This document shows, piece after piece, positions 3,724-63,116 of a stretch of DNA of 64,000 nucleotides; the stretch's first letter is position 1; every line of letters begins with the position of its first letter. Below the pieces are notes generated by a model, which saw only the letters and a program-made list of their open reading frames with translations, had not been told where the DNA came from and searched no databases. Made by a program: the position numbers and the translations under genes. Source of the stretch: Saprospira grandis str. Lewin (GTDB taxonomy: Bacteria; Bacteroidota; Bacteroidia; Chitinophagales; Saprospiraceae). The stretch is taken from assembly GCF_000250635.1 (NCBI RefSeq), contig NC_016940.1, forward strand, positions 1,352,995 through 1,416,994, written 5' to 3'.

Positions 3724-3736
3724 ATTTATTTTTGTT

Positions 3737-7278: not shown

Positions 7279-7413
7279 GCGGCGAAGCCGCCGCAGGCCT
7301 AGCGATGCGGAGGGGTGGCCGAAGGCCAGACCAAGCCGCTCTAAGCGGCGAAGGGCCGAGCAGACCTGCGAGCCCCATAGCGTAGCGCCTGCCGAAGGCA
7401 GGAGGCCCCAAAT
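7279..7413 (-). repeat. GC-rich interspersed element, subfamily A2 (reverse orientation, ends GGAGGCCCCAAA)
   Basis: CCTAGCGATGCGG…GGCCAGACCAAGCCG…GGGCCGAGCAGACCTGCGAGC…CGTAGCGCCTGCC…GGAGGCCCC matches the reverse complement of the 42783 copy. Confidence 0.8.
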
Positions 7414-14164: not shown

Positions 14165-14385
14165 GTTAAACTATTATTTTAATTGATTAATGGTGTCAGT
14201 GATTTATAGACAATAACTAAAGTCAAATCTTGACTCTAGGCAGTCTAGTCCAAAGACAAAATTAAATTTTTTATGCTAATTTTATAATTCCCCTCTCAGA
14301 ACTTTCTTCCGATTTGCTTATTTCTCCCCTGCCATTTGGGCCCAAAGCGCCCTTTCTCCCCCCCTTTTGGCCCAGCAGTATTGGC

Positions 14386-14517
14386 CCAGCGCTGCGAAGG
14401 GGTGGCCGCAAGGCCAGACCCAGGCGCTGAAAGCGCCGCAGGGCCGAGCAGACCTGCGAGCCCCGAAGCATAGCGGCGGCCGACCTAGGCGAAGCCTAGC
14501 CGGCCGCGGGCCCCAAA
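14386..14517 (-). repeat. GC-rich interspersed element, A2-like
   Basis: GGCCAGACCCAGGCG…GCAGGGCCGAGCAGACCTGCGAGCCCC…GGGCCCCAAAA. Ends 12 nt before the S8 peptidase ATG. Confidence 0.8.
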
Positions 14518-16760: not shown

Positions 16761-16882
16761 AGGCCCTAAAATCAATAAACCCCTAAATTTCGCCGCTAAG
16801 CGAGCCTAGCTAATCTCTAGTAGGGTCAGTCCAGAAAAAAAAGACAGGACCTTAGTGATACGCCCAGAGGAGTTTGTAAACT

Positions 16883-17169
16883 GCAAATTAGCTCTGGGCA
16901 TCGTTCAGAGCTGTTTTGCAAATGCAAATTAGCTCCGGGCATCGTTCAGAGGCGTTTTGCAAATGCAAATTAGCTCCGGGCATCGTTCAGAGCTGTTTTG
17001 CAAATGCAAATTAGCTCCGGGCATCGTTCAGAGCTGTTTTGCAAATGCAAATTAGCTCTGGGCATCGTTCAGAGGCGTTTTGCAAATGCAAATTAGCTCT
17101 GGGCATCGTTCAGAGGCGTTTTGCAAATGCAAATTAGCTCCGGGCATCGTTCAGAGCTGTTTTGCAAAT
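16883..17169. repeat. tandem array, 41-bp unit x7 (GCAAATTAGCTCyGGGCATCGTTCAGAGsyGTTTTGCAAAT)
   Basis: Seven head-to-tail units with only two variable positions. The unit contains the TTTGCAAA palindrome and a GCAAAT direct dyad. Related 26-27 nt sequences flank it at 16866 and 17196. Confidence 0.9.
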
Positions 17170-17243
17170 GAAAATAAAGGCTAGCGCCAAGCCAGAGGCA
17201 TTTGTAAACTGCAGATAGGTCCCAAACTCTTGTTTAGGGGCAT

Positions 17244-21399: not shown

Positions 21400-21450
21400 G
21401 TTGGTTTGTTCAGGATATTGTATATCTAAATAAGTTTAGGGAAGTAGAAT

Positions 21451-21627
21451 TTAGCCAATAGTCGCCTAGGGACAAGCCCCTAGGCTAATAAATGGAGTCA
21501 GCCCTAAAGGGCCTCAAGGTAAGATACTTTTTGACTTACTTGTTCTTGCGAAGAAAACAGCGTCCCTAAAGGCCCTCGCAGAGGGCTGTCTACAAAAGCT
21601 AGCCTAGGGGCTTGTCCCTAGGCAGCT
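21451..21627. mobile_element. MITE-like element, family B, with ~30-bp terminal inverted repeats (GCCAATAGTCGCCTAGGGACAAGCCCCTAGGCTA)
   Basis: The left end at 21451 and the reverse complement of the right end at 21597-21627 share CCTAGGGACAAGCCCCTAGGCTA. A matching solo end is at 30107. No ORF. Confidence 0.65.
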
Positions 21628-26217: not shown

Positions 26218-26354
26218 AGGCGCGAAGCGCCTGGCCTAGCGATGTGCAGCAGTGCGGCGAAGCCGCAGACCAAGGCCGTCAGGCCGCAGGGCCGAGCGAA
26301 CAGCGAGCTGCGAAACGTAGCGCAGCAAGGCGAAGCCGCAGCTGAGGCCCCAAA
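26218..26354 (-). repeat. GC-rich interspersed element, subfamily A2
   Basis: GGCCTAGCGATGTGCAGCAGTGCGGCGAAGCCGCAGACCAAGGCCGTCAGGCCGCAGGGCCGAGCGAACAGCGAGCTGCGAAACGTAGCG…GAGGCCCCAAAA. Ends 40 nt before the helicase ATG. Confidence 0.85.
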
Positions 26355-26394
26355 ACAGACAGACAAAAAAACCTAACCCAACAATTATATTTTT

Positions 26395-29778: not shown

Positions 29779-29833
29779 TTTTCTCCTTTCTGATCTTAAT
29801 TTATCCCGCTAGTCATCATGACTAGGGGGATAT

Positions 29834-29987
29834 TTTTTTGGGGCCTGCCGCCTTTGGCGGCCGGGCCCTTGCAGGGCTCGCAGGTCTGCTCGGCCCTGCG
29901 TCGCCTTCGGCTCCTTGGTCTGGCCTGCGGCCACCCTTTCAGGCCCCTAGGCCGTTTGGCCTTCGGCCATGGGGCGGCGAAGCCGCC
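29834..29987 (+). repeat. GC-rich interspersed element, hybrid subtype (TTTTGGGGCCTGCCGCC… with an A1-like GGTCTGGCCTGCGGCCACC 3' part)
   Basis: Shares its architecture with the copy at 62963. Confidence 0.8.
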
Positions 29988-30106
29988 TGTTTAAATAGTC
30001 TCATGGGCTGTTTAGAGCCATGGGCTGAAGCCCTTGTTTGCTGAGGGGGCGGGACTGCTCAGGATTTTGTGTATCCGAATAAAATTTGGGCTTTTAGCTT
30101 GTTAGG

Positions 30107-30183
30107 ATTTGGCCAATAGTCGCCTAGGGACAAGCCCCTAGGCTAGCTTTTTCAGACAGCCCTCTAAAGAGGGCCTTTGGATG
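30107..30183. mobile_element. solo terminal fragment of family B MITE-like element
   Basis: GCCAATAGTCGCCTAGGGACAAGCCCCTAGGCTAGCTTTTTCAGACAGCCCTCT…GAGGGCC matches the right arm of 21451..21627. Confidence 0.6.
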
Positions 30184-30252
30184 AGATTCAGCTCTGCTAT
30201 AACGACTGGTCAAGGACCTGTATATCAACCTTTGGGGCTAAGCAGTTTACTT

Positions 30253-30563
30253 CCAGACCGAACTAGTTCACCGCCAGACCGAACTAGTTTACCTCCAGAC
30301 CGAACTAGTTCACTTCCAGACCGAACTAGTTCACCGCCAGACCGAACTAGTTTACCTCCAGACCGAACTAGTTCACTTCCAGACCGAACTAGTTCACTTC
30401 CAGACCGAACTAGTTCACCGCCAGACCGAACTAGTTCACCGCCAGACCGAACTAGTTTACCTCCAGACCGAACTAGTTTACCTCCAGACCGAACTAGTTT
30501 ACTTCCAGACCTAACTAGTTCACTTCCAGACATAACTAGTTCACTTCCAGACATAACTTTTGC
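30253..30563. repeat. tandem array, 21-bp unit x~15 (CCAGACCGAACTAGTTCACyk), each unit carrying the 10-bp perfect palindrome GAACTAGTTC
   Basis: Three unit variants differ only in the last 5 nt. The last 3 units degenerate (CTAACTAG, ATAACTAG). The array is open in several frames, giving a spurious PDRTSS-repeat ORF. Confidence 0.9.
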
Positions 30564-30636
30564 CTTTTTTCATTTTGTTGCGTTTTTTTTAGTTTTTAAC
30601 AAATCTCTAACAATTCAGTATAAAAAAAGGGGGATG

Positions 30637-30756
30637 AGCGGCCTAGCGATGCGGAAGGGGGCGGCGAAGCCGCAGACCAAGGCCGTCAGGCCGCAGGGCC
30701 GAGCAGCCTTGCGAGCCCTGCAGCGTAGCGCCTGCCGCAGGCAGGAGGCCCCAAAA
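30637..30756 (-). repeat. GC-rich interspersed element, subfamily A2
   Basis: GGCCTAGCGATGCGGAAGGGGGCGGCGAAGCCGCAGACCAAGGCCGTCAGGCCGCAGGGCCGAGCAGCCTTGCGAGCCC…GGAGGCCCCAAAA. Confidence 0.85.
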
Positions 30757-30813
30757 CAAAAAAGGCCAGCCCCAGAGGAGCTGACCTTCGTCAGTAATTA
30801 GTTAGCTAAGTCA

Positions 30814-33800
30814 TTAAGGCTTAACGACTTCAAAGTTCAGTTGGCTTTGCACGGCCTCGATATGAACATTAAGATAATAAGTACCTGCGGGTAGGTTTTG
30901 GATAGCATCTAGGGTAATGAGGTCGCCGGGGCGGACCGTTTGGCTGCTGCTAAAGACTTGGCGGCCGAGTACATCTAGGAGTTTGAAATTCACTTGGCTC
31001 GTTGTTTTGAGCTGGCTAAAGCGGATATTTACAAAATCGCTAGCGGGGTTCGGGAAGACCGTCACATCTAGTTCTGAGCTATTATTGACGGCACGGACCT
31101 CAGCGTACTCAAAGTCTCCGTTAAAGTCGACTTGTCGCAGGCGGTAGTAAGTTGTATTCTCGTAGCTATTATAGTCGGTATAGCTATAGTAGTTGGCGGT
31201 TGAGCTATTGCCTTGACCTTGGACAAAATCGATTTGGCTAAAGTCGGTTTCATAGTCAAACATGCGTTCTACCTCAAAGCCGCGGTTATCTCTTTCTGTT
31301 TCGCTGGCCCAAGAGAGGAGCACTTCAGAAGAAGACTGGCGTTCGGCATCGAAGAAGAGCCATTCGATGGGGAAATCGACATAAGTATTGGCATCGCGCC
31401 AGTCATTATCGTCGAGTCCGTCATTGTTGGGAGTTGGAGCGGTAGTACCGAGGGCGCTACCATTCACATTATCGTCAAAAATATCGGCGAGACCATCATT
31501 ATCGGCATCGATCCAGAAAGGAGAGTTAGGATCGAGGAAAGGAGGTGTTTGGTTATTGGTATAGCCATCTCCGTTGAGGTTATCTAGCCAATCGGGTAGG
31601 CCATCGCCATCGCTATCGGTATTGGGATAGTGAGCGGGGTTACCGCCGTTGGCGACATAGGCTGTGGCCATTTGGATAATTTCGTCGGCGGCATTGCCAT
31701 CGCCAGCGGTGGCGGTACCGAAGCCATTATCAAAGCCTTCGGCCCAGTCGAAGCCGCTATCATTATCAGAGTCGAGATCTAGATAATCTGCGGGAGCGGT
31801 GCCATCATTATTATCCTCATTGGGCGTAGCGCCGATATTTGCGCCTGCTGCTTGGTTGGCAGCATCTAGGCCTTCGTAGATATCGAGTACACCGTTTCCA
31901 TTAGCATCGGCGCCAGAAGGCGTCATGCCGAAGGTGGGGCAAGTTGAGCAAACGGCTTCTAGATAATCTGGGATACCGTCATTATCGGCATCGATATCAT
32001 AGAGGTCGGCAATACCGTCGCCATCTGTATCTAGGAGGTTAATGGTTCCATTTTGGAGGTCAGACCAGCCGTCGTTATTAGCGTCGGTAATGGGACCATC
32101 TTCAATTTGGCCATCGAGGGTACCGTTGGCGGGAGAATCGGTATTAGCGGCTCCGGTTACTGCTCCTGCTGCGGCTTCTACTACATCGGTAACTCCATCA
32201 TTATCGCTATCGAGATCGAGGAAGTTAGGTGTAGCGTCGGCATCTGCATTAGCATTTGGATAGCTATCTGGAGTGCCATCATTGTTATTGTCGGCGCCAG
32301 TCAAAATGAGTACGGCAGCGCTATTATCGGCAGTACCATCATTATTGGGGTCACCGTCTACGGCATCGGCAAAGCCATCGCCATCGGCATCAGTAAAGAC
32401 ATCTACTTGGCCGTCTCCATCGGCATCCGTTCCATAGGCTTCTAGAATATCTTGGACTCCATCGTTATCGCTATCGAGGTCATAGATATTAAGAATACCG
32501 TCGGCATCGAAATCGCCATTGGGGTAGCTATCGGGTTCGCCATCATTATTATTATCGGCTCCAGTAAGGATAAGGACTTGGGCGCTATTCTCGGCGGTAC
32601 CGTCGTTTCCGACATCGCCATCGAGGACATCATGCAGGCCGTCATTATCGGTATCGACAAAGTCGTCGGCAAAACCGTCTCCGTTGGTATCGGTTCCGCC
32701 AGCTTCTACCACATCTGCGATACCGTCATTATCGCTATCGAGATCATAGATATTAAGGACTCCATCGCTATCTGCGTCTCCGTTAGGGTAATTATCGGGG
32801 GCACCGTCATTATTGACATCATTGCCTGTAAGGATAAGAGCTTGAGCGCTGTTTTCTGCGGTGCCATCGTTTCCGACATCTCCATCGATAACATCATGCA
32901 AACCGTCGTTATCGGTATCGACAAAGTTATCGGCTAGGCCATCGCCATCGGCATCTGTTCCGCCGGCTTCTACTAGATCGGGTATACCGTCATTATCGCT
33001 ATCAAGATCGAGGTTATTCGGAATACCGTCACCATCGACATCATTGTTAAGATAACTATCGGCTAGGCCATCATTGTTATTATCGGCACCAGTAAGTTGG
33101 AGTGCATTAGCGGTATTTTCGGCGGTGCCATCGTTTCCGACATCGCCATCTACGGCATCATGAATACCATCGCCATCGGCATCGACAAAGTTATCGATTC
33201 TGCCATCGCCATCGGCATCAGTTCCGCCGGCTTCTACGGCGTCTGGAATACCGTCATTATCGCTATCGAGGTCAAATTGGTTAGGAATGCCATCGCCATC
33301 ATTATCGGCGAGGAATTCATTGCTACCGTCGGCATCGCGGTCGAGCAATACAGAAGTAGAATTAGCGGCAAGGCAGCTAGGTTGGGGGCCACAGGGGCTA
33401 GTGCCTTCTGGGCCATCGGTATCATCATTATCTACTGCATCGGGAAGGCCATCGCCATCCGAGTCCGTTAAATCATCGAGAATACCGTCTCCATTGGTAT
33501 CTACGCCACCAACTTCAACTAGGTCAGGAATACCGTCATTATCGTTATCCAGATCTAGGTGATTGGGTACGCCATCGCCGTCGAGGTCGAGGTTAGAGCA
33601 AGTCCCGTTAGCGTTGAGTCCGCCACAAGTGGGGAAATCAACATCGGCATAATTGGGTGTGCCATCGCCATCTAGGTCGCCATCGGGATCGGGGAGGCCA
33701 TTGGCACAGCTCCAGCCGTTCACGCCATCGAAGAAGGCGGCGCAATAATCGGGATCGGCATAATCGGGAGTACCGTCGCCATCATGGTCACCATTATAGG

Positions 33801-36800
33801 CTTCCACTGCATCGGGGATACCGTCATTATCTTGGTCGAGATCAGCTTTAGGATCTCTCCAATCGAGTTCGGCATTACCGGCATCTGCATCGGGATGGCT
33901 ATTGGGAGTAAGTCCTGTATTTGTAGCATCTGTGCTGCTGGTATTATTATCAAAACCATCAAGGAGGCCATCGCCATCGGCATCAACAGCCCCTCCGACA
34001 CCTGTATTAGCATTGGGGCTATCGCTAGCATCTACAAGGCCATCGCCATTTGTATCATGTCCTTCGATAAGGTCGCCTTCACCGTCATTATCGGTATCGA
34101 GGTCGAGATAATCGGGATTATCGGTAGCATCTGTATTTACGGGAGTAAGGCCAGAATTATCGCCACCGAAGAGGCCATCATTATTATCGTAAGCATCATC
34201 GATACCGTCGCCATCGGCATCGCTACCTGTGGGAGCGATATAGCTGCCTGTAGCTTGGGCTTCTGTATTATCTACGATACCATCATTATCGGCGTCAATA
34301 TCGAGGAAATTGGGATTATTATCGCCATCCTGATTAGCTGTAGTATAGCTATCGGGATAGCCATCATTATTGCCATCGGTAGTTGTAATGGGCGTAGTTC
34401 CAGCATTAGCGGCATCGCTAGTATTTGACCAACCGTTGCCATCGGCATCATTAGTAGTGGCATCATCCATTTGGCCATCGGCATTAGCGTCAGAGGCGGC
34501 TAGGCCAGCTTCAACGATATCGAGGATACCGTCATTATCGCTATCGAGGTCATAGAGGTTGAGTACGCCGTCGCCATCGAAGTCGCCTTCATTGTAGTTA
34601 TCTGGGCGGCCATCGCTTCCAGCATCGGGACCGGTAGCAATCAATGGGTTAGTGCCTGCGTCGCCAGCTACGCTATCATTATTGGCATCTGAGTCATATT
34701 GGTTAGAGAAACCGTCATTATCAGTATCTGTAAAGTTATCTACTTGGCCGTTGCCATCTACATCAGCTCCTCCAGCCTCTACTAAATCAGGAATACCATC
34801 ATTATCTGAGTCTAGATCATAAGCGTTGAGGTAATTATCGCCATCGGCATCGGCTGTAGGATAACTATCGGGATGGCCATCATTATTGCCATCGGGGCCA
34901 GTAACTACCAGGGCGCCGGCTGTATTTTCGGCGGTACCATCGTTTCCGACATCGCCATCTACAGCATCATAAAAGCCATCATTGTCCGTATCGCTAAAGC
35001 CATCAATAACGCCATCGCCGTCGGCATCTACGCCACCAGCTTCTACCACATCAGGGATACCATCATTATCGGCATCTAGGTCTAGATGATTGAGCAGGCC
35101 ATCACCATCGGCGTCGGCATTGGGGTAGCTATCGGGAGCGCCATCATTATCATTATCGGCTCCAGTAAGGACAAGGGCATTATTAAAGTTATCGGCAATA
35201 CCGTCATTATCGGGATCTCCATCAATAGGATCATGGAAACCATCGCCATCGGCATCGGCAAAAGCATCGACTTGGCCATCGCCATCGGTGTCTGTTCCGC
35301 CAGCTTCTACCAAATCGGGAATACCATCATTATCGGCATCTAGGTCATAAACATCTAGGATACCGTCGCCATCAAAGTCTCCTTGAGGAAAATCATCGGG
35401 TTGGCCGTCGTTATTGCCATCGGCACCTGTAGGTTGAAGGGCTTGAGCTAGGTTTTCTGCGGTGCCATCATTACCTACATCACCATCAACAACATCATTG
35501 AATCCGTCTCGGTCTGTATCTACATAATTGTCCGAAATACCATCGCCATCAGTATCTGTTCCCCCTGCTTCGACAACATCGGGAATACCATCATTATCAG
35601 CATCTAAATCCAAATAATTAGGAACACCATCATTGTCGGTATCTAGGTTGGCGATAGGAGTGCCAGCAGGCAGGCCTAAAGTATACTCCAAAGACACAGA
35701 TTGTACACAAGAAGAAATTGTATTTCCTCCACAAGTTGTATTTACGTTATTATTTGCATCCAAAGTCAACTGAATAGTCCCATCATCATTCCAACTATTC
35801 CATAAAGCAACTGGAATAGTAAATGCAAAATTCATATACGGGGTTACACAGTCAGCATAAGCAGGATTATCAGAATTAGAGCGATCTATAGTTAGTAATA
35901 CATTGCCCAATTCATCTAGAAGTGAAATCTCTTCTCCTGCGTTACCATAGTCTCCAGCCAAGGAAAATCGCCAAACAGCATTCGTAGTAATATCAACGGT
36001 TGATACAGTAAAATTCATTACATGATTAGGACCATTTCCCCCCAAACATTCATCAGGAGAAGTCGCAACCTCATTGGTAACAAGTAAATCATCATAAGCA
36101 TCCGCCAGACCATCGGCATCAGCATCTACAAAAGTATCTACTCGGCCATCGCCATCAGTGTCTACTCCTCCAGCTTCCACTATGTCAGGAATACCATCAC
36201 CATCGGCATCAAGATCATAGGCATTGATAATACCATCGCCATCAGCATCATAAAAATCGCTAACGCCATCAAAATCGGCATCTACAAAGTTTACATCATC
36301 GGGGTCGAGATAGTTGGGGATACCATCACCATCAGTATCATCTTCAGGATCTAAACCATTATGTTCTAAAAGGTCTGGAATACCATCATTATCATCATCA
36401 GTATCTACAGCATCGGCGATACCATCACCATCAGCATCACAATCAGGTGTACTTCTAGTAAAGGGAGCAGATGAAACATCGTAAGACCAGAACCAAGTAA
36501 CAATAGTTCGGGCATTACCATAGTCATCGCAAAGGTCTGCAGGAGTTGCTGAGCCAGCTCCTGCTGTAGGGGCAGGAGAGGCAAAGGTAGCTGCTCCATC
36601 CCAAGCATGTGTTGGGCCTAAGAAGCCCTCCAACATATTTGTTGAAGCCACACCAGTGGCTGTACTGTTGTGATTACCTACATCAGAACAGTCTCCGATA
36701 GGGTTTAAGTTAGTATCATCCCAATAAAGTTTTCTATTTCCTAAAGCTGGAAAAAAAGCATTTACAGAAAATCCACTAGAGTTTAGCTCGGCATCATGCA

Positions 36801-37974
36801 TAGGAATAGCTGTTCGCCCTCGAAAAAGAGTAGCCGTAATTTCAAAGCTAGTGGCTCCAGAAACAGGGTTTCCTTGGCCATCTAGACCATCCCAGTTTAG
36901 TACGTGATTACCTGCGGCTAAATCATAAGCCTCAAGAACTCTATCTGCCGTTCCTGACTGATAGCCTGCAACACCATTTAAATCTAAAAGAAGTGCCGCA
37001 TCTCCTGGATCAGGTAAAAACAAAGGGATATAGTATGCACCTGGACAACCATATACATTGGCTGGAATAGCTGGGGCAGCTGAAGGAGGTACTACACGAA
37101 AAATGCTTGTATCAGGCACTGCCAAAAAAACCTCATAGCCATCAGCAAATGCAGGGGAGTTTTGTCCCGAATAAACTGAAGCCCGATCATTGACAAAATC
37201 TCCATTATCAACAACTCCATACTTGTTCATCGCCAATACATATCCCAAAGGGCGAAAGCCAGTTTGAAAATTCATCCGAACAACAGAGCTATCTGAAGTA
37301 TACGCATAATAATCTCCTTCAAAAGAAAAGTTAATAGAAGGCGTAAAGTCTGGACTTGCAGGGTCATATGTAATAAATGACCAGCGCTGACAGTGTAAAC
37401 GTCCCTCTAAGAAAGTATTGGTCCCATTCTCTGCTACTGTAATATCAAAGTAGGGAAAAAAGATTTCGCCGTTGGCAGAGGCATCTGCTGTAGCTCCACC
37501 ATCTGTACTTTGAAATAGCTCAATACGATAATCCCCGTTTTGAGTGGGGGTAAATGTAAGCGGAGTATAGCCAGCAGGATTTGTTCCTCCAATATTTGGC
37601 CCTGCTACTGCTTCATTATAGGTATTGATGAAGCCAGCTCCTGCTGTTTGTAATAAAAAGGCTGGAACGACTACAGTACCTAAGGGGTCGATAACTCGAA
37701 TATAGACATTATTAGGTCTGCTCACTGCAGGAAGCCGCTCGTACATATTAAAGCCCAAATAAATTGTCTCCGTACTAAAGTCAGAAATAGAGACCTTTAA
37801 GCCATTGTTTACCCCAGAGTTGAGGTAAGAGCCATTTCCCAAGGACTGCCGAATCCAGAGGGCCGTTCCATTGGTACTGTTAGGCATTACCTGGGCTGTC
37901 CCTTCTGCTCTTAACTGGGCAGAAAAGAACAAAAGCAATGCACTTAAAATTAAGTGATAGTAAATTCTTTTCAT
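30814..37974 (-). CDS. giant (2386 aa) secreted protein with dozens of thrombospondin type-3 (calcium-binding DxDxDGxxDxxD) repeats and a T9SS C-terminal sorting domain
   Basis: Signal peptide [24 protein letters not shown] ~100-aa module ([25 protein letters not shown]…[12 protein letters not shown]…[10 protein letters not shown]) is repeated more than 10 times. C-terminal [14 protein letters not shown]…LDVLGRQV is CTD-like. Confidence 0.85.
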
Positions 37975-38490
37975 ATTGGTGGTTTTGGTTTAGTAATCGA
38001 CTAGGCAATACAAATATGATACGATTAGGGCGATTTTGTGACATAATCAAAATCTAAAAAACTCATTCATTATCAATACCCTAAATTTCACTGATCAACA
38101 TATATAACATAAAATCATGAGAACAAATAATTTAAGCTGTAAAATGTGACTGAGTTTTTTATCTCTGCAGAGATCCTCTCCTTTCCAATGCGTCACTTTT
38201 TTCAAATTTTATTTTCATATATTTTTTTACCTAAATTATAATAAATATCATATTTTATCAAAACAATTTAATAAAGTCCAAAAACAAGGCTTTTCAGCTT
38301 ATACAGTCCTTTCTCCAAACTGTACAAATACTGGACAGGCCCCTCTTTTATAGTCTTCTCTGCCATTACGACTATTTTGTACCTACGGACTTCTAAGCAG
38401 AAATAAAAATCTGATAATCAGCAAAAACAAGGGGTTGGCCCGCATTATAATGCGGGCCAACCCCTAAATACGAGCTGCCTATTTTAGATC

Positions 38491-40455: not shown

Positions 40456-41010
40456 TGGCGGTCTGGGCGGGCCGAAGGCCCGCCGGCCTAGCGATGTGCA
40501 GCAGTGCGGCGCAGCCGCAGACCCAGGCCGTCAGGCCGCAGGGCCGAGCAGACCTGCGAGCTGCGGAACGTAGCGCCGACGAGCGAAGGGAGGCGGAGGC
40601 CCCAAAACAGCAGCGAGCTGCGACAACCAGCCTCGAAGAGGCGCCAGTTCGACGACCAAAGGGAGTAAACGTAGCGCCGACGACCGAAGGGAGGCGGAGG
40701 CCCCAAAATAGCAGCGAGCTGCGACAACCAGCCTCGAAGAGGCGCCAGTTCGACGACCAAAGGGAGTAAACGTAGCGCCGACGAGCGAAGCGAGGCGGAG
40801 GCCCCAAAATAGCAGCGAGCTGCGACAACCAGCCTCGAAGAGGCGCCAGTTCGACGACCAAAGGGAGTAAACGTAGCGCCGACGAGCGAAGCGAGGCGGA
40901 GGCCCCAAAATAGCAGCGAGCTGCGACAACCAGCCTCGAAGAGGCGCCAGTTCGACGACCAAAGGGAGTAAACGTAGCGCCGACGAGCGAAGGGAGGCGG
41001 AGGCCCCAAA
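40456..41010 (-). repeat. GC-rich interspersed element (A2) expanded by four tandem copies of an internal ~101-bp sub-unit
   Basis: The A2 head (GGCCTAGCGATGTGCAGCAGTGCGGCGCAGCCGCAGACCCAGGCCGTCAGGCCGCAGGGCCGAGCAGACCTGCGAGCTGCGGAACGTAGCGCCG) is followed by four copies of GAGGCGGAGGCCCCAAAAyAGCAGCGAGCTGCGACAACCAGCCTCGAAGAGGCGCCAGTTCGACGACCAAAGGGAGTAAACGTAGCGCCGACGAsCGAAG. The period of 101 bp was counted at 40591, 40692 and 40793. Confidence 0.85.
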
Positions 41011-42694: not shown

Positions 42695-42782
42695 GATTTG
42701 GGAAGTCTGTTTATTATCTCTGTAGGTTAAAACCTCATAAAGCTAATCCTTTGAATATACAGGATAGTGAATAGTTGGGGAT

Positions 42783-42917
42783 TTTGGGGCCTCCTGCCTG
42801 CGGCAGGCGCTACGTTTCGCAGCTCGCTATTCGCTCGGCCCTGCGGCCTGACGGCCTTGGTCTGCGGCTGTGCCGCACTGCTGCACATCGCTAGGCCAGG
42901 CTGGCCGAAGGCCAGCC
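42783..42917 (+). repeat. GC-rich interspersed element, subfamily A2 (compact reference copy)
   Basis: TTTTGGGGCCTCCTGCCTGCGGCAGGCGCTACGTTTCGCAGCTCGCTATTCGCTCGGCCCTGCGGCCTGACGGCCTTGGTCTGCGGCTGTGCCGCACTGCTGCACATCGCTAGGCCAGGCTGGCCGAAGGCCAGCC. Confidence 0.85.
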
Positions 42918-43047: not shown

Positions 43048-43620
43048 ATGGATATTTCAATTGCGGCCCTTCGGGCTGGAGACCAAAGGGCCTACAAAGC
43101 CCTCTATGAACAGGCCTATTGGTATTGTGCTAGTTATTTGCTCCAACAGGGCGCCCAAGAAACCGATGCCAAAGCCACTTTTAATCGTGCCCTAGAGATT
43201 TTTTGGACCAAAATGCAAACGCCCGATTTCGAGCTCAGTTGCCAACCCAAAACCTATCTCTATGCCGTTTGCCGAAACCTCTGGCTCAAACAGCTCCGCA
43301 AACAAAAGAAAAACCCCATCCTCCAAGATGAGGAACGCCTGCTGCAAGAGCCCCTCCCCCATTTGGTCCAAGAAGAGGTCTACTTTTTAGAAGAAGAAGA
43401 GGCCGACCCCCTACTCATGACCGCCATGAAAGCCCTAAGCAGCATGAAGAATACCGATTGCCAAAAAGTGCTGGAGCTCTACTATTTTGAGAAGAAGTCG
43501 CATCGAGAAATTGAGCAAATTATGGGCTTTGCCGATAATTACTCTAAGGTGAAGAAAAATAGCTGTATCAAACAGCTCAAAAAACAATTGCTGCGCCTGC
43601 TGGGCCAGCCCAAAGCCTAA
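43048..43620 (+). CDS. ECF-type RNA polymerase sigma-70 family factor
   Basis: 190 aa. Region-2-like segment (YLYAVCRNLWLKQLRK) and a C-terminal region-4 HTH (SHREIEQIMGFADNYSKVKK). Confidence 0.65.
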   Translation: MDISIAALRAGDQRAYKALYEQAYWYCASYLLQQGAQETDAKATFNRALEIFWTKMQTPDFELSCQPKTYLYAVCRNLWLKQLRKQKKNPILQDEERLLQEPLPHLVQEEVYFLEEEEADPLLMTAMKALSSMKNTDCQKVLELYYFEKKSHREIEQIMGFADNYSKVKKNSCIKQLKKQLLRLLGQPKA

Positions 43621-43624
43621 ATTT

Positions 43625-44515
43625 ATGGATTTTCATAGCCCCGAATGGCTGGATGCTTTCCAGCAAAACCAACTCTCTGCCGAAGAGCGAGCCGCTACCC
43701 TTGCCTTGGCCCAAAAAGATGCCGCCTATGCCGCCCAGCTGCAGGCCCATGGCATCGCTATCCAAGCTATTCAGGCTTTTGGCCGCCAAACTGCCGTAGA
43801 AAAAATGGCCCAAGAACTTGAGGAGGAAGGCCTTTTTGAACGCCCCATAGAACAAGCCCTACAGACCCAAGCCGCACAAAACCAAATTGGCCAAATTGCC
43901 CAAGAGTTAGAAGCAGAAGGCTTTTTTGCCCAAAAAGAAGAAAAGGAAGAGGAGATTAAGGTGCGCCCCCTCCCCCGCTGGCGCCCAATTATGGGTATTG
44001 CCGCTAGCCTAATTTTATTGGTGAGTCTAGGCTATTGGTGGCAGAAGTCGCAAAGCCTGCCCAGCTGGTCTCAAGAATATGCTATCGCTAGCGCAGAGTC
44101 TACCCAAAAAGAATTACAACTGCTTTTAGGCGCCCAAGGCTTTGGCCAAAATGAAGAAGCCCTCAGACAGTTGCAGCTTGGCCTCGATGCCTATGAGAAA
44201 AAGGATTGGACCAAAGCCAAAACAGAGTTGCTGGCCTACCAAAAGGCCAATTCTATCTTTGCCCAAGAAGAAACCCAGTTTTATCTGGGCCATATCGCTT
44301 TTGAGCAAGGAGAACTAGGCAGCGCAAAGTCCTACTGGCAAGAGCTGGCCCAATTGCCTAGCCTGCCCCCCCATATTTCCGAAAAACTCAGTTGGTATCA
44401 GGCGCTCTTGGCCCTACGCGAAAACCAAAAAGAACTGGCCAAAAGCTACCTGAAAAAGGTCCCTCAAGGCCCCTATCAAGAAAAAGCCAAAGAGCTCTTG
44501 CAAACGCTAGAGTAA
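43625..44515 (+). CDS. putative anti-sigma factor (single TM helix, C-terminal TPR-like region)
   Basis: Starts 4 nt after the sigma gene. TM segment IMGIAASLILLVSLGYWW. C-terminal helical repeats. Confidence 0.5.
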   Translation: MDFHSPEWLDAFQQNQLSAEERAATLALAQKDAAYAAQLQAHGIAIQAIQAFGRQTAVEKMAQELEEEGLFERPIEQALQTQAAQNQIGQIAQELEAEGFFAQKEEKEEEIKVRPLPRWRPIMGIAASLILLVSLGYWWQKSQSLPSWSQEYAIASAESTQKELQLLLGAQGFGQNEEALRQLQLGLDAYEKKDWTKAKTELLAYQKANSIFAQEETQFYLGHIAFEQGELGSAKSYWQELAQLPSLPPHISEKLSWYQALLALRENQKELAKSYLKKVPQGPYQEKAKELLQTLE

Positions 44516-44550
44516 TACAAGGCCTTGCTCCTTAGTAGAATATTAGATGA

Positions 44551-44576
44551 TCCCCTCCTCGGAGGGGATTTTTTTT
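44551..44576 (+). terminator. rho-independent terminator of the sigma/anti-sigma operon
   Basis: TCCCCTCC-TC-GGAGGGGA followed by T8. Confidence 0.8.
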
Positions 44577-44579
44577 GTC

Positions 44580-45127
44580 CCCTATTCGATAGAGATCAAA
44601 TACCCCATCAAGGGCTTGATGCCCTATTCGACAGAGATCAAATACCCCATCAAAGGCTTGATGCCCTATTCGACAGAGATCAAATACCCCATCAAAGGCT
44701 TGATGCCCTATTCGACAGAGATCAAATACCCCATCAAAGGCTTGATGCCCTAGTTGACAGAGATCAAATACCCCATCAAAGGCTTGATGCCCTATTCGAT
44801 AGAGATCAAACACCCCATAAAAGGCTTGATGCCCTATTCGATAGAGATCAAATACCTCATAAAAGGCTTGATGCCCTATTCGACAGAGATCAAATACCCC
44901 ATCAAAGGCTTGATGCCCTATTCGACAGAGATCAAATACCCCATCAAAGGCTTGATGCCCTAGTTGACAGAGATCAAACACCCCATCAAAGGCTTGATGC
45001 CCTATTCGACAGAGATCAAATACCCCATCAAAGGCTTGATGCCCTAGTTGACAGAGATCAAACACCCCATCAAAGGCTTGATGCCCTATTCGACAGAGAT
45101 CAAATACCCCATCAAAGGCTTGATGCC
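44580..45127. repeat. tandem array, 42-bp unit x13 (CCCTATTCGACAGAGATCAAATACCCCATCAAAGGCTTGATG)
   Basis: 13 head-to-tail units with sparse variants (ATACC/ACACC, TTCGAC/GTTGAC, CATCAA/CATAAA). The unit contains the CATCAA-AGGC-TTGATG inverted repeat and a GATC site. It is open in several frames, giving a spurious DALFDRDQIPHQRL-repeat ORF. Confidence 0.9.
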
Positions 45128-45138
45128 CTAATTGGTCC

Positions 45139-45178
45139 AAAAACAAAAGGGGCTGCTCGATATCGAGCAGCCCCTTTG
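45139..45178 (-). terminator. rho-independent terminator of the OMP gene (perfect 15-bp palindrome AAAGGGGCTGCTCGA|TATCGAGCAGCCCCTTT)
   Basis: Hairpin immediately downstream of the stop at 45198. An A-rich run on the + strand gives a T-run on the minus strand. Confidence 0.75.
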
Positions 45179-45197
45179 CAGCAGGTCCTAAGCGATC

Positions 45198-46880
45198 TTA
45201 GAACTTAGCAATGACACCAATTTTTCCATTGATGCCCAATTGCTGATAGAGGTACCAGCGTTGGTATTTGTTATTGAGCAAATTGTTGCCTTCTACAAAG
45301 AAAGCAAAGCGTTGTTGCTCTCCTTTTCCTAGCCAATAAGTAGCATTGAGGTTAAGGTCAAACAAACCGCCAAGGGTTTCGCTTTCAGTGCCTAAGGCAG
45401 GAAGATAAGGCACGCCAGCATTGACAAAGAGGTCGGCCCCAACTTCTAGATTACCTTTTTTATATTTTAGGCCAAAGCTAGACTCCAAAACAGGCAGATG
45501 ATAAGCCACTTCAGCCGTTCCGCCGCTATAATTATTGAAAGCTAGCGCCCCCTTAAAGTAGAGTTCCTCCATAATTTGGAGCTCCACATCTGCGGCCACA
45601 GTCAAGCGGCTGAGTGTATCATAGGCCAGACCAAATTTCAGATAATTGCTTTCTACGGTATTATAGAAAAGGGGTTGTTGGCTCAAATTGGCATAAGAGA
45701 CATTAAAGTCGTAGCCTAGGCGCTTAATCTTCCCTTTGAGTCCCCCATAAAAGCGGCTTTCTTGGGTATGTTCCCAATGCAGGCGCTCTGTATCCAAGAA
45801 AGGATTATAAGTAGAGAGCTGCATGAGGGTATTTTCACGGATACTGCCCGACCAACCTGCATAGGGAATAAATTGGCCCCCTAAAACGGCATAGCTAAGC
45901 TCGATATCGGGCAAAACGAAGAACTGTCCGGCATTGCTTCCTAAGCGGGCGCCCAAACGGCTCTTAAAGTTGCCAAAATTGAGGTCGGCTCCAGCATGCA
46001 ATTGGGCCAGGCTGCGGCTTTGGCTGCTATCGGTGGTGGTATAGCGGCTATACAGCAGCTCGGCATTGGCAAAGAGGCGATGTTGGGGGCTGCGGCTATT
46101 GCCCAACCATTTTTCAAAAACAAGGCGGGGGCGGATATTGAGTTCGCCAACGCCATGATAAGAACTGGTATTATAGAGGTCCAAATCGGCTCTATAGTTC
46201 ATCTCTTGTTTATTGCTTTTGGCATTAAAGAGATGAATATTGGCCCCTACCGTAAGGTAGCGCTGTTTGAGGCTATCTTCGGCTAGGCCAGAGCTATCTT
46301 GAGCGAAGGGATAAAGGCTATCGCCTAGATTTTCGAGCAGTTGGTGGTAGCCATAATAGCGATAATTATTGAGGTCCATATTTAGGGCACCGCCAACAGC
46401 AAGGCCATTAGACAGAAAATAATCGCCCTGTAGATTTAGCGAAGTTTCGCCAAAAACTTGGTCCTCTAAGTTACCTTGGCTGCTATGGTGTTTGGCTGTT
46501 GCCCCAAAGCGAAATTTATCGCTATTGCTATTGTGGTAAGAGAGTTCTAGCAAGGGGGAAAGCGGGTAACCAATGCCAGCCTTTGTATAAAAGTTGAGAC
46601 TTTTGGGCGGCTTAGGCACGGGCATAGCCAGCGGGCGGATATTGGGTTCTGGATAATTAACCGAGACGATCCGTTCGGGGACCAAATAAGTTATTTTTTG
46701 GCCAGCGCTGGTATCCAAATCGGGTAAAAGAGGCTGAGCCTCCTGCTTTTTACTTTCGGCCAATTGGGCCTTAAAGGGTTTGACTAGCTCGGTCCCTACA
46801 TCATTGATTTGGGCCTTTAGGCTGGGGGCAAACAGCCCAACAGCCAAAGCTAAACAAAGAGATTTACTATATTTTATCAT
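45198..46880 (-). CDS. outer-membrane beta-barrel protein (signal peptide, C-terminal Phe)
   Basis: Start moved to the ATG at 46878-46880 (MIKYSKSLCLALAVGLFAPSLKAQ). Alternating amphipathic beta-strand pattern. Ends …GVIAKF. Confidence 0.65.
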   Translation of the reverse strand: MIKYSKSLCLALAVGLFAPSLKAQINDVGTELVKPFKAQLAESKKQEAQPLLPDLDTSAGQKITYLVPERIVSVNYPEPNIRPLAMPVPKPPKSLNFYTKAGIGYPLSPLLELSYHNSNSDKFRFGATAKHHSSQGNLEDQVFGETSLNLQGDYFLSNGLAVGGALNMDLNNYRYYGYHQLLENLGDSLYPFAQDSSGLAEDSLKQRYLTVGANIHLFNAKSNKQEMNYRADLDLYNTSSYHGVGELNIRPRLVFEKWLGNSRSPQHRLFANAELLYSRYTTTDSSQSRSLAQLHAGADLNFGNFKSRLGARLGSNAGQFFVLPDIELSYAVLGGQFIPYAGWSGSIRENTLMQLSTYNPFLDTERLHWEHTQESRFYGGLKGKIKRLGYDFNVSYANLSQQPLFYNTVESNYLKFGLAYDTLSRLTVAADVELQIMEELYFKGALAFNNYSGGTAEVAYHLPVLESSFGLKYKKGNLEVGADLFVNAGVPYLPALGTESETLGGLFDLNLNATYWLGKGEQQRFAFFVEGNNLLNNKYQRWYLYQQLGINGKIGVIAKF

Positions 46881-46913
46881 TTGATTTTTCTTTAGACGAT
46901 CTATTTTGGAGAG

Positions 46914-47077
46914 GACAGGTGGCGAAGCCGCCGCAAAGGAGCGCAGCGACGCGGCTGAGGGATGGGCAGCAGTGGCCCGCGGGGCCAGACCCAGCCGCCA
47001 AAGGCGGCGCAGGGCCGAGCGAATAGCGAGCTGCGATACAGCCCGACCCGCCCGCAGGGCGGGGCAGCCCCAAAAAA
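46914..47077 (-). repeat. GC-rich interspersed element, subfamily A1
   Basis: …GGGATGGGCAGCAGTGGCCCGCGGGGCCAGACCCAGCCGCC…GCAGGGCCGAGCGAATAGCGAGCTGCGATACAGCCCGACCCG…GGGGCAGCCCCAAAAAAA. Lies between the TPR gene stop and the OMP gene start. Confidence 0.85.
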
Positions 47078-47085
47078 AGAAAGAT

Positions 47086-50000
47086 TTAATCAATCATTTC
47101 TAGTTCGCCATTGCCATCATTTCGGCGCAGGCGGCTATTAGAAGAAATAGCTTGCTTGACTTGGGCCAGTTTATCTTGGGCCTCCTTCACAATTTCGGCT
47201 TCTCCGTCGAAGTTGCCCAAAAGGCTTTCTAGAGTACCTTTGGCCGCATCTAGTTTGCCTTGTTCGGCATAGATATCGGCGATGAGGATAAAGTTGCGCG
47301 CCAACCAATTGAGGTGTTGGCCCAGCAGCTTATTGTTTTGGAAGGCCAGCTCTAGAGCGCCATCCAAATCGCGTTGGATATAAGTAATTTTGGCGATTTG
47401 GTAATGGGCTTCAGAGGCGTTGATATCGTCATCGACCAGCTTGAGGCTCTCCTTATAAGACTGCATCGCCTTGGCATTATCGCCAGCGGCTTGTTGGGCC
47501 TTAGCGAGATAAAAATGGGCCTCGGCCTTGTTGGCAGCGCTAGCATTGGGTTCTTTGAGGAAGTTGGTGGCCAGTCCCTTTAGCGACTGATAATTTTGGC
47601 CATAATAGGCAGAGCGCATACCGAATAGGCGAGCTTCCGATCGGTTTTCGGGGCTAGAAGCAAACTGTTCTAGGCCTTGAAAATAAGTGAGGGCCTTGGC
47701 ATAATCCTCCGTAATATGGTAACAAATTCGGCCTGCCAAGAGGTTGGCTTCCTCCGCCATAGCGGGGGGCGCTTTGGGGTCCTTGGCCTCTGCCACATAG
47801 GCAAAATCGCCTAGTGCTTTGGGGTATTCCTTGAGATTATAGTAGGCAATCCCTCGGTTGAGGTGGGCCGACATACTATTGAGGCCCTTTGGAAAGCGAT
47901 CGAGATATTTGCTGTAATTATCCGCAGCGGCTGGCCAGTTTTCCTGATCGAAAGAAGAGGCGGCCGACTCATAAAGGAGCGAATCTGCGGCCATATCGGA
48001 GAAATTATAGCCCTGCAAAGTAGAGGCATAAGCCATAAAGCCGTCGGGATCGCCTTGATCGATATAGATTTTTCGGATAAAATTGAGGGCCGCTTTGGCT
48101 TCCTCTGTTTGGACATTATTGCTCACCACCGTCTTAAAATAATCGAGGGCTTCGCGGTTCATATCGCGGCTATAAGAGAGCACGCCCAATTTGTAGAGGG
48201 CTTTGGCGGTATACTCGCTATCGGGATATTTCACGATCAATTGGTCAAAACTTCCTTTAGCCTGATCGAATTCATTTTGGTTAATCTGCGTGCTCCCCAT
48301 GGCATAAAGCGCATCATCGGCATAGATTGAACTGGGGTGTTGGCCCACCAAATCGGCTAGGGTGCGCAGTTGCTTTTGGGCTTGATTGGTCAAGCTATAA
48401 ATCAGGCTCAGCTGATACATGGCATAATCCTCATTGGGGAAATTATTGGCCACAATCCGCTCATAATAGCCAGCGGCGGCCGTATAATTATTCGTTCCGC
48501 CCAAATAAAGGTAGCAATCGCCAGCCCGGCCGAGGGCATCGGGATAGACAAAATTAGAGACATGTCGATCATTGATTTTGCTCAGGCGGGGCTCAATATA
48601 TTTAACCGCCTTCACGAACTCGCCCACGGCATTATCGTAGCTATTTTTGCGAAGATAATTGTAGCCTAGGCCATAATGGGCCGTTCCTTTAGAGGAATTG
48701 GCGGGTAATTGGGGGGCCGCAGCCGCTACCGTCGTAAAGCGGTTATACTCATCAATACTTTTATCAAATTGGTCCAATTGGAAAAGCGCCTCGGCTTTCC
48801 AGAAATGGGCCAGGGCCGTGGTTTCGGTATGCACGGCAGAGCCCAGAGACTCATTAAAGCGCTCTACGGCCTTGGTAAAATTACTGGCCTTATAATGCTG
48901 CACGCCACGGAAATAGGCCACTTTTTGGAAAGCCTCTTTGAGAGAGGGCTCGCTGCGGTCGATTGTTCTTAGGATGCTCAGGGCTTTTTCATAATCGCGA
49001 GTATTGAGGAAGAGCTGGCTCATCAAATTTTGCGACTCGTTGCTGTATTTTGTATTGAGTAGCTCCATAAAAGCCGAAATAGCGTCATTGTCTAGGCCCA
49101 ATTCATAAGACAATTTGGCATAATTCATTTTAGCGTCAATCTGCAGCTCTTTGTCCTGCTTCATTTCTGCGGCCTGCTTAAAGGAAAGGCGGGCCTCCTC
49201 TTTTCGGCCTAATTTGAGTTGGCAATCGGCCAGATTGTAGCGGGCATTTTGGCCCAACTTATTATCTAATCGAGCAATTTGCTCAAAGTTACCAGCGGCA
49301 TCCTCATATTTTCCAGCTCGATATTGGGTATAAGCCAATTGATAGAAGATATCTTCTGTCATTTTTGGCGTCTTGCTGGCGTATTCTTCCATAAAAGGAA
49401 GCGCTTTTTGGTAATTCTTCTTTTCGTAATAGGCTTGGCCCACCGCCTGTACAATTGTCATACGTTCCCGCACCGTATTGCTTTTGGTGTAGGGTTCTCC
49501 GTAGGCAATTGTTTTATCATAATCCTTTTTCATGAAATGGATCTGCGTGATATAGGTAGGGACCACCTTTTCGTAGCGGCTCGACTTATTGGCAATTTCA
49601 AAGCTAGCCAGGGCGGCATCAAAGTCTTTGAGGAAGAAAGAGCAGAGGCCATAATAGTAATTGGCGGGAAAAGTATACTCGCTTTTGGTCCCTTTGATTT
49701 GGGCAAAAACGGGTTGGGCTTTTCTAAAGTCCTTAGAGACAAAATAGCAATAGGCCAGTTGGAACTTGGCCTCGATCAGCTCCTCATTGCTCAGGTCATT
49801 GAGGTCCTTAAAATTGATGCTACTGAGGTATTTAATAGCCTTTTTATAATCTCTTTGGGCATAATAATAACGGCCCACCTCCAATTTGGCCTGAGCGGCC
49901 ACCGACATAGGCTCATATTTCTTAATCAGGACCAAAAGTTTGTTTTCGGCATCGGGCCGTTCCAAGCGCAGGGCGGCCAGAGCGGCATAAAGTTCTGCTT

Positions 50001-51410: not shown

Positions 51411-51536
51411 GGCGCCAATGGCCTAGCGATGCGAAAGGGTGGCCGTCAGGCCAGACCGAGGCGCTTTGCGCCGAAGGGCCGAGCAGAGCTGCGAGCCCTG
51501 TAGCGTAGCGCCTGCCGCAGGCAGGAGGCCCCAAAA
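51411..51536 (-). repeat. GC-rich interspersed element, subfamily A2
   Basis: GGCCTAGCGATGCGAAAGGGTGGCCGTCAGGCCAGACCGAGGCG…GGGCCGAGCAGAGCTGCGAGCCC…CGTAGCGCCTGCCGCAGGCAGGAGGCCCCAAAA. Confidence 0.85.
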
Positions 51537-55597: not shown

Positions 55598-55840
55598 TTT
55601 TTTGGGGCCTCCGCTGCGGCCTGCGGCCTTGCGGCGGTTACTCCCTTTGGTCGTCGAACTGCGCCCTAAAGGGCTTGTTGTCGTTGCGCAGCTCGCTGCT
55701 ATTTTGGGGCCTCCGCCTCCCTTCGGTCGTCGGCGCTACGTTGCGCAGCTCGCTGTTCGCTCGGCCCTGCGGCCTGACGGCCTAGGTCTGCGGCTGCGCC
55801 GCACTGCTGCACATCGCTAGGCCGAATGGCCTTCGGCCAT
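55598..55840 (+). repeat. GC-rich interspersed element (A2) containing ~1.5 copies of the 101-bp internal sub-unit
   Basis: TTTTTTGGGGCCTCCGCTGCGGCC…GGTTACTCCCTTTGGTCGTCGAACTGCGCC…GCTGCTATTTTGGGGCCTCCGCCTCCCTTCGGTCGTCGGCGCTACGTTGCGCAGCTCGCTG…CATCGCTAGGCCGAATGGCCTTCGGCC. Confidence 0.85.
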
Positions 55841-62934: not shown

Positions 62935-62969
62935 CAGCAGCTACTGATGCAGTAGTTGCTGTTTTTTTT
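62935..62969 (+). terminator. rho-independent terminator of the lipoprotein pair
   Basis: CAGCAGCTACTG-ATG-CAGTAGTTGCTG, a 12-bp stem, followed by T8. Confidence 0.8.
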
Positions 62970-63116
62970 GGGGCCTGCCGCCTGCGGCGGCCGGGCCCTT
63001 GCAGGGCTCGCAGCTCTGCTCGGCCCTTCAGCCCTTCGGGCTTCGGTCTGGCCTGCGGCCACCCTTTCAGGCCCCTAGGCCAGTCGCTGCGCTCCTTTGC
63101 GGCGGCTCCGCCGCCT
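62963..63116 (+). repeat. GC-rich interspersed element, hybrid subtype
   Basis: TTTTTTTTGGGGCCTGCCGCCTGCGGCGGCCGGGCCCTTGCAGGGCTCGCAGCTCTGCTCGGCCC…GGTCTGGCCTGCGGCCACCCTTTCAGGCCCCTAGGCC…. Same architecture as 29834. Confidence 0.8.

Follow-up and report, generated by a model that had tools for sequence, protein, structure and literature searches.

Intergenic tandem arrays of 40–100-bp units with a variable copy number are known from the mycobacterial interspersed repetitive units (MIRU), a single family with dozens of dispersed loci, whose members are often situated inside operons and contain short ORFs that are coupled to the neighbouring genes. Bacterial minisatellite (VNTR) loci are used in MLVA typing and are collected in the Microorganisms Tandem Repeat Database (PMC2884548). 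In the sopC locus of the F plasmid, a direct repeat of 43 bp occurs 12 times, and SopB binds the 16-bp inverted repeat of each copy (PMC3177203). The REP, BIME and SPRITE elements are present as hundreds of dispersed copies with GC-rich, stable hairpins in alternating orientation (PMC3184786; bioRxiv 10.64898/2026.03.23.713779). About 60% of the REPs of E. coli lie between convergent genes, ~40% between genes in tandem and ~1% between divergent ones (bioRxiv 10.64898/2026.03.23.713779), and a convergent or 3′-end bias has been described for REP in Pseudomonas syringae and for SPRITE in pneumococcus (PMC3184786).

The locus described here, a 42-bp tandem array in the chromosome of Saprospira grandis str. 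Lewin, lies in a window of 64,000 nucleotides (i.e., the whole stretch of DNA that was analysed, to which all coordinates refer). It resembles the VNTR loci most closely, with head-to-tail units of tens of bp in an intergenic position, a strain-variable unit number, interspersed unit variants and the traces of slippage or unequal recombination; the difference is that a birth series of 0, 1, 3, 8 and 13 units can be traced here among sequenced relatives. Unlike the MIRU, which occupy many loci, the 42-bp unit was found at a single locus, between two terminators. With REP, BIME and SPRITE it shares the extragenic habitat at gene 3′ ends, especially between convergent genes, and the palindromic nature of its units, but it is not a dispersed family, and instead of a ~35-bp GC-rich palindrome it has a weak, AT-rich stem of 6 bp, with all units in direct orientation. 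No description of this locus or of tandem arrays in Saprospira was found in the searchable literature. With high confidence, we regard the array as a young, lineage-specific and near-neutral minisatellite (VNTR) of the S. grandis chromosome that has no sequence-specific function.

The array and its boundaries

The first-pass annotation, which had been made from the letters of the DNA, described thirteen head-to-tail 42-bp units boxed in by two convergent terminators, and both parts of this description were borne out. Tandem Repeats Finder placed the array at 44580–45130, with a period of 42, 13.1 copies, 94% matches, zero indels and a score of 990, and a repeat search returned 13 copies in register, spaced by exactly 42 bp and with 88–100% identity to the reference copy. 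A 30-nt core gave 13 matches in the array versus none in 100 shuffles. The 13 complete units, a number that is the count in the assembly and of which an independent short-read contig (L004) covers the array start only, extend over 44580..45125 without an assigned strand; their consensus is CCCTATTCGACAGAGATCAAATACCCCATCAAAGGCTTGATG, and they come in six variants. After unit 13, the array ends with a partial 14th unit of 12 bp, CCCTAATTGGTC (45126..45137, again without a strand), which alignment with zero-copy and one-copy strains showed to be homologous to the first 9–12 nt of the unit plus the tail of the ancestral spacer. Runs of identical units are also present, and units 10–11 are the same as units 12–13, i.e., an exact block duplication of 84 bp. 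The array thus has the head-to-tail units of ~10–100 bp by which a minisatellite or VNTR is recognized.

Each unit holds one GATC and the dyad CATCAA-AGGC-TTGATG, which has a 6-bp stem and a 4-nt loop. Both had been attributed to the unit in general; this stood for the GATC, which is found in every unit, whereas the dyad is intact in 11 of the 13 Lewin units, with units 6 and 7 reading CATAAA.

The left boundary of the array is an intrinsic-terminator-like hairpin, GATCCCCTCC-TCGG-AGGGGATT, followed by a T run (44549..44579, + strand), which belongs to a sigma-like/anti-sigma-like gene pair; the terminator scan gave nine pairs, a loop of 4 and the tail TTTTTTGTCC for the hairpin at 44549–44570. 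On the right, the boundary is a perfect palindrome that resembles an intrinsic terminator, AAAGGGGCTGCTCGA-TA-TCGAGCAGCCCCTTT, and has a T-rich tail (45136..45177, − strand); it serves the gene of an outer-membrane protein (OMP). Its arms are 17 nt long and 100% complementary by repeat search, and the terminator scan read it on the − strand (45177–45146) as 14 pairs, nine of them G-C, with a loop of 4 and then TGTTTTTGG. Essentially all of the space between the two terminators is taken up by the array, and both terminators are kept in all of the strains compared.

The flanking genes lie outside the repeat and serve as context. Upstream, an ORF of 190 aa (43048..43620, + strand) encodes an ECF-sigma-like protein, with sub-threshold Pfam matches only (Sigma70_r2, E = 0.0026; Sigma70_r4_2, E = 0.0043), and in all strains compared it adjoins the gene of a putative anti-sigma-like protein of 296 aa (43625..44515, + strand), the 3′ end of which points towards the array. 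The latter ORF matched no Pfam family at E ≤ 0.001, and a gene call is present for it in the orthologous loci. Downstream, the OMP of 560 aa is encoded on the − strand (45198..46880); its GenBank version has 631 aa and extends to 47093 through a GC-rich repeat. This longer ORF (45198–47093) and AFC24114.1 of S. grandis str. Lewin are identical. There was no Pfam match for the OMP gene product, and the name TonB-dependent receptor comes from the source records alone. The gene labels used in the first-pass annotation (sigma, anti-sigma, OMP) are therefore softer than it had implied.

The orthologous gap in related strains

The copy-number comparison among strains that the first-pass annotation had proposed as a check was carried out by locating orthologous gaps via homologues of the OMP gene and exact-protein look-ups, which yielded six further strain backgrounds with the same flanking genes and a range of 0–13 units. 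Lewin has 13 units, and DSM 2844 has 8.2, together with a MITE-like insertion of ~276 bp between the T run of the terminator and the array. Among the Brazilian metagenome scaffolds, one (L023) shows three units and another (L022) has an N-gap within the array. Exactly one unit is present both in S. grandis CP110854 and in an ENA metagenome contig from ERZ28505417 (L024), and there is none in Saprospira sp. CCB-QB6 or in the JGI, ENA and Logan contigs L005–L007. The orthologous locus is therefore polymorphic in copy number across seven strain backgrounds (13, 8, at least 3, 1, 1, 0 and 0), as a VNTR is expected to be. The locus is chromosomal, and it is syntenic in four genomes. The MITE-like insertion, which is unrelated to the array, occurs in the anti-sigma/OMP gap of CCB-QB6 as well as in that of DSM 2844.

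Pairwise comparison of the OMP gene (1683 bp) placed the unit-bearing strains 3–5% apart, and the two zero-copy lineages 8–10% from these and from each other; L024 aside, the closest sequenced relative of Lewin is CP110854. Since the unit-bearing strains form a clade and the zero-copy strains fall outside it at this greater distance, a single gain is the most parsimonious account.

The variants within the units tell of what may have followed. Three polymorphisms are common to Lewin and DSM 2844, i.e., ATTC/AGTT (positions 6–8), T/C (position 22) and CATCAA/CATAAA (position 30), which argues that the array was already multi-unit and heterogeneous in the ancestor of these two strains. At position 19, on the other hand, every one of the 13 Lewin units has A and every Brazilian unit has T, which is also found in 4 of the 8 units of DSM 2844, a pattern which indicates that each array has probably been homogenized within itself, as in concerted evolution. 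The strains with one unit have the left half in common (ATTCGAT) and differ in the right half (ATACCTC vs ACAGCCC), so that their single units would be the products of independent collapses, in which the first unit recombined with a later one. The signs by which slippage or unequal exchange is known in VNTR loci were thus all found: the 84-bp block duplication, the strain-fixed position 19 and the chimeric single units. Two motifs, AGAGATC (which holds the GATC) and CCCTA, are invariant across the units, and so is GGCTTGATG outside the Brazilian strain. This invariance could mean constraint instead of recent common descent.

The zero-copy strains make it possible to propose where the unit came from. 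Their spacer of ~35 bp aligns to positions 1–20 of the unit (CCCT.G.TGAC.GA.A.CTAA) plus a tail (..TTGG.C) and is without the 22 nt that carry the hairpin. In the one-unit form, these 22 nt are present, and a direct repeat, CCCTA.TTG, stands at both ends of the 42-bp segment; this repeat is likely to have been the seed, or natural substrate, for the first slippage duplication. In the history that we favor, the ancestral spacer between the convergent terminators would have been ~35 bp long, as it is in CCB-QB6 and several metagenome strains, and the ~22 extra bases would have arisen in the ancestor of the Lewin / CP110854 / DSM 2844 clade, creating the CATCAA/TTGATG hairpin and the direct repeat of 9–12 bp (CCCTA.TTG) around a 42-bp segment. 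The first duplication may then have come about by slippage during replication, or by unequal recombination between sister strands, at this direct repeat, and the expansion, up to 8 units in DSM 2844 and 13 in Lewin, by further out-of-register events. The same events would account for the within-strain homogenization and the block duplication, and the array would have collapsed repeatedly to a single unit (CP110854, ERZ28505417). We infer in this way the direction of the change (from 0 to 1 to many, with collapses), the mechanism of slippage or recombination, and neutrality. The array presumably persists because it comes after both terminators, in a gap between convergent genes where there is no promoter, operator or ribosome-binding site to be disrupted; little transcription would be expected in such a terminator-bounded gap.

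Tests for function and rival readings

The dyad was followed through all 26 units of the arrays compared. It is intact in 20 of these (11/13 in Lewin, 6/8 in DSM 2844, both of the single ones and 1/3 in the Brazilian strain); in the latter strain the right arm has changed from TTGATG to TTTTTG with the left arm unchanged, i.e., there is no compensation. As far as aligned units can tell, this shows the dyad to be under no constraint. Random 42-mers of the same composition contain a perfect 6-bp inverted repeat (3–8-nt loop) in ~5% of cases and a GATC in ~15%, and each of the two features is for this reason unremarkable alone. When three units were folded as single-stranded DNA, the energy was −11 kcal/mol (z = −1.45), which is not unusual. 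Signalling of the GATC/Dam type was judged unlikely, given that GATC is expected in ~15% of random units and is under-represented in the window outside the array, with an observed/expected ratio of 0.64. An Rfam search of the window returned two tRNAs only, neither of them in the array, and a known RNA family was discarded on this basis. Inside the array there is neither a sigma-70-like promoter nor a Bacteroidetes-type TAnnTTTG motif, and the ORFs of the array had no Pfam match on either strand; the anti-sigma/OMP gap has no gene call in any orthologous locus. A CRISPR array was dismissed because the units abut without spacers and no protein of the window has a Cas domain.

The unit was also searched for elsewhere. 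In a scan of one genome per species, its 22-nt core was found in S. grandis DSM 2844 and as two single matches in Sphaerochaeta, which are taken to be chance; in the 4.4-Mb scaffold of DSM 2844, the core occurs at the orthologous locus only. No unit junction was found in the metagenome or viral contig collections, the dyad has no further copy in the 64-kb window even when one mismatch is allowed, and the fetched loci contain no conserved core outside the orthologous arrays. A dispersed family was rejected accordingly, the unit having been found in the genome, metagenome and viral collections at the orthologous S. grandis locus only. A blastn search against 72,556 plasmid and 50,697 phage records gave no match, and a Pfam search of the ~40 proteins of the window revealed no ParA, CbiA, ParBc, replication initiator, recombinase or Cas domain. 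A plasmid or phage origin or centromere was set aside for want of a plasmid or phage match and of par genes in the window.

In its geometry the array comes strikingly close to sopC, with ~12–13 direct repeats of 42–43 bp and a 16-bp dyad region that is intact here in 20 of the 26 units, and this raises the possibility of phased binding sites for a DNA-binding protein, i.e., a sopC-like centromere or a nucleoid-organizing or titration array, where the dyad CATCAA N4 TTGATG recurs every four helical turns (42 bp = 4 × 10.5 bp), which would place bound proteins on one face of the DNA, and a nucleoprotein complex is assembled in a silent gap. A portion of the unit does not vary among the 26 units, and the two terminators shield the array from transcription. 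The array nevertheless differs from sopC in other respects. No operon of the sopA/sopB type is near it, and neither ParA, ParB, a replication protein nor any other partner gene is found among the ~40 genes of the window; it is not on a low-copy plasmid or prophage but on the chromosome, with neighbours of a housekeeping type (sigma-like, anti-sigma-like, OMP and TPR genes), and neither sopC nor any plasmid or phage record is similar to it in sequence. The dyad, of a kind that is expected in ~5% of random 42-mers, has no other copies in the window or the fetched loci and is broken in 6 of the 26 units, including two of the three Brazilian ones, without compensation, and close relatives carry one unit or none. 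Phased sites are therefore very improbable. On the comparative data alone, a strain-specific function keeps a small probability, as does a strain-specific role in protein binding in view of the constant AGAGATC and CCCTA blocks and the period of four turns. A bolder version, in which a DNA-binding protein would find in the array a platform that is strain-specific and phased with the helix, i.e., a chromosomal array of the sopC type or a nucleoid anchor, strikes us as very improbable; if it were true, two other arrays of the window, described below, one of 21 bp (two turns) and one of 41 bp, would be further examples, and the gaps between convergent terminators would be where Saprospira makes such platforms de novo.

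Could the array instead act as RNA, either as a 3′ UTR reached by read-through or as a small RNA with its own promoter? The thirteen hairpins would then guard the convergent mRNAs from 3′ exonucleases or back up bidirectional termination, and REP arrays between convergent genes of E. coli have been reported as terminators and decay blocks (bioRxiv 10.64898/2026.03.23.713779). A 6-bp hairpin can form in each unit, but the hairpins are weak, as the folding of three units showed, lack a T run and have not been conserved, and little read-through is expected in an array that is distal to strong intrinsic terminators on both sides. The lack of an Rfam match and of a promoter-like site within the array, and the intact flanking genes of relatives with 0–1 units, also make this reading hard to sustain, and we give it very little credence. 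The length of the unit, which is 14 codons, would allow a repeat protein, and in fact an ORF of 227 aa with the repeat DALFDRDQIPHQRL runs along the + strand (44525–45208), its frame being open in DSM 2844 too, and one of 204 aa along the − strand. Yet the + strand ORF runs from a TTG within the upstream terminator to the inside of the 3′ end of the OMP gene, and open frames on both strands are expected for about half of stop-free 42-mers. The differences among the units are mostly amino-acid-changing in the + frame (F/V, I/T, Q/K, Q/L, R/G), the protein would shrink to one repeat or none in close relatives, and it has neither a Pfam match nor a gene call at any orthologous locus; a coding role is thus extremely unlikely. 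The array, or its length, might finally be an artefact of mis-joined reads. Short-read assemblies do break in the array (L004, in unit 2) or are scaffolded with N (L022), and the figure of 13 depends on the finishing of the Lewin genome. Homologous arrays are, however, present at the same site in independent assemblies (8 units in DSM 2844, and the Brazilian scaffolds), and contig L004, assembled from an independent set of short reads, agrees exactly with the window across the left junction, through unit 1 and into the start of unit 2, where it ends; the interspersed unit variants, moreover, make the array structure assemblable. An artefact is accordingly very unlikely.

Other arrays of the window and the meaning of the locus

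Three further intergenic arrays are present in the window: one of 41 bp × 7.4 (16873–17175) and one of 21 bp × 14.7 (30244–30552), both in convergent gaps, and one of 101 bp × 4.4 (40567–41010) in a co-directional gap. The first-pass annotation had stated that all three arrays of the window lie in convergent gaps; this is correct for the 41-, 21- and 42-bp arrays, but the fourth, co-directional one of 101 bp had been omitted. The gap census covered the 41 genes of the window, cross-checked with orthologous gene calls, and its 40 gaps comprise 9 convergent, 8 divergent and 23 co-directional ones. Of the four arrays, three fall into convergent gaps and the fourth into a co-directional one, with the divergent gaps left free; chance would put three or more of four into convergent gaps with P = 0.03 if the gaps are counted and P = 0.07 if their length is taken into account, for a sample of four and post hoc. 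An enrichment of arrays in the convergent gaps of the window is thus suggestive only, and the placement agrees with the documented habitat of other non-coding repeats.

By the same kind of strain comparison, the other arrays are apparently no less dispensable. Three relatives carry 7.3, 5.6 and 6.6 copies in the 41-bp array, and in DSM 2844 its gap has been cleanly deleted between two AGGGGCA repeats. CP110854 lacks the segment of ~8.7 kb in which the 21-bp array sits. In other strains the 101-bp repeat occurs as a single copy; its source is a dispersed GC-rich element, which has at least 11 copies in the window and is a better REP analogue in the S. grandis genome than the 42-bp unit. Across the region compared, arrays are both more numerous and longer in Lewin than in its relatives. 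The first-pass annotation had suggested a common mode of origin or function for the arrays on the strength of their shared placement and design. A common origin found no support at the level of sequence when the consensus units were inspected by eye: they are without evident similarity, the 101-bp array goes back to the dispersed element, and the 42-bp unit was found at its own locus only. Of the two ideas which the annotation had offered as examples, a tolerated satellite niche is supported by the range of 0–13 copies, by the MITE-like insertions and by the deletion of the 41-bp array gap in DSM 2844, and organized protein-binding sites, with the dyad broken in 6 of 26 units, are not supported.

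The array does not point to a new mechanism, its closest known kind being the bacterial minisatellite or VNTR, and it matters mostly in practice and as an illustration. For the typing of S. grandis strains, the locus would be a good VNTR marker, and short-read assemblies are likely to break at it; two of them do break or are scaffolded here. It also offers an unusually complete view of the birth of a minisatellite, from an empty 35-bp spacer through one unit with a short direct repeat to expanded arrays and independent collapses. Gaps next to the 3′ ends of genes, above all those between convergent genes, are known to tolerate non-coding repeats in bacteria, and to this the locus adds a small data point from Saprospira.

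The 41-bp array in related strains

The 41-bp array, which in Lewin occupies a convergent gap (window 16873-17175), was found in the same convergent gap in S. grandis CP110854 (5.6 copies, L010 11235-11463), in Saprospira sp. CCB-QB6 (6.6 copies, L015 11202-11471) and in an ENA contig (7.3 copies, L016 11204-11503), the L-numbers denoting the loci fetched from these relatives. The unit sequence differs from strain to strain among these four, and a GC-rich hairpin is kept in every version, in the form of AGCTCTG..CAGAGCT, CTCTGGCG-CCA-CGCCAGAG or TGGGCG-CCA-CGCCCA; the hairpin changes between the versions look compensatory. The array is absent from S. grandis DSM 2844, where a deletion between two AGGGGCA repeats has removed the entire inter-terminator segment and the remaining gap measures 75 bp (L012 11078-11152).

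A dispersed GC-rich element and its neighbors

A GC-rich intergenic element of ~120 bp, which resembles a REP or MITE, is present in at least 12 copies within the 64-kb window, at positions 3735-3854, 3982-4039, 7296-7412, 14383-14482, 26233-26357, 29833-29922, 30640-30760, 40485-40609, 42782-42897, 51420-51536, 55702-55823 and 62962-63050. It was found in gaps of every orientation class and in all strains examined. Spurious open reading frames arise from it, among them the N-terminal extension in the annotation of the OMP gene. RefSeq annotates this protein with 560 aa and GenBank, in AFC24114.1, with 631 aa, the GenBank start being a TTG that lies 71 codons farther upstream. The extension (window 46881-47093) is unusually rich in Ala, Arg and Gly, and it resembles the dispersed GC-rich repeats in translation; the form conserved in all relatives is that of 560 aa.

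The copy at 40485-40609 is adjoined by a fourth intergenic array (window 40567-41010; 101 bp x 4.4, 98% identical), which lies in a co-directional gap. Its unit is also similar to window 55639-55742 (87%) and 3886-3943, both beside other copies of the GC-rich element, and the other strains carry one copy of the unit at the orthologous gap.

The 21-bp array, its surroundings and window composition

CP110854 is without a segment of ~8.7 kb (window 29779-38490 versus L008 17485-17834) that contains the 21-bp array and the gene of a 2386-aa type IX secretion substrate; the helicase and OmpA-like genes are directly convergent there. This 2386-aa Por_Secre_tail gene holds 3.1 copies of a 264-bp unit (76% identical, window 32465-33274), a coding domain repeat as opposed to an intergenic array.

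A MITE-like element with the terminal inverted repeats CTGTTyArrATTTTGTGT was located at window 30050-30243 and 21407-21623, in DSM 2844 between the terminator T run and the 42-bp array (L002 3832-4107), flanked by a GGGATT duplication, and as a shorter copy after the anti-sigma stop codon in CCB-QB6 (L009, about 11845-11975). One window copy adjoins the 21-bp array, and this array may have arisen by internal amplification of the MITE-like element.

Among palindromic tetranucleotides, the observed/expected ratios in the whole window outside the 42-bp array were 0.33 for CCGG, 0.34 for CGCG, 0.64 for GATC and 1.2 for GGCC, figures that hint at restriction-modification pressure.
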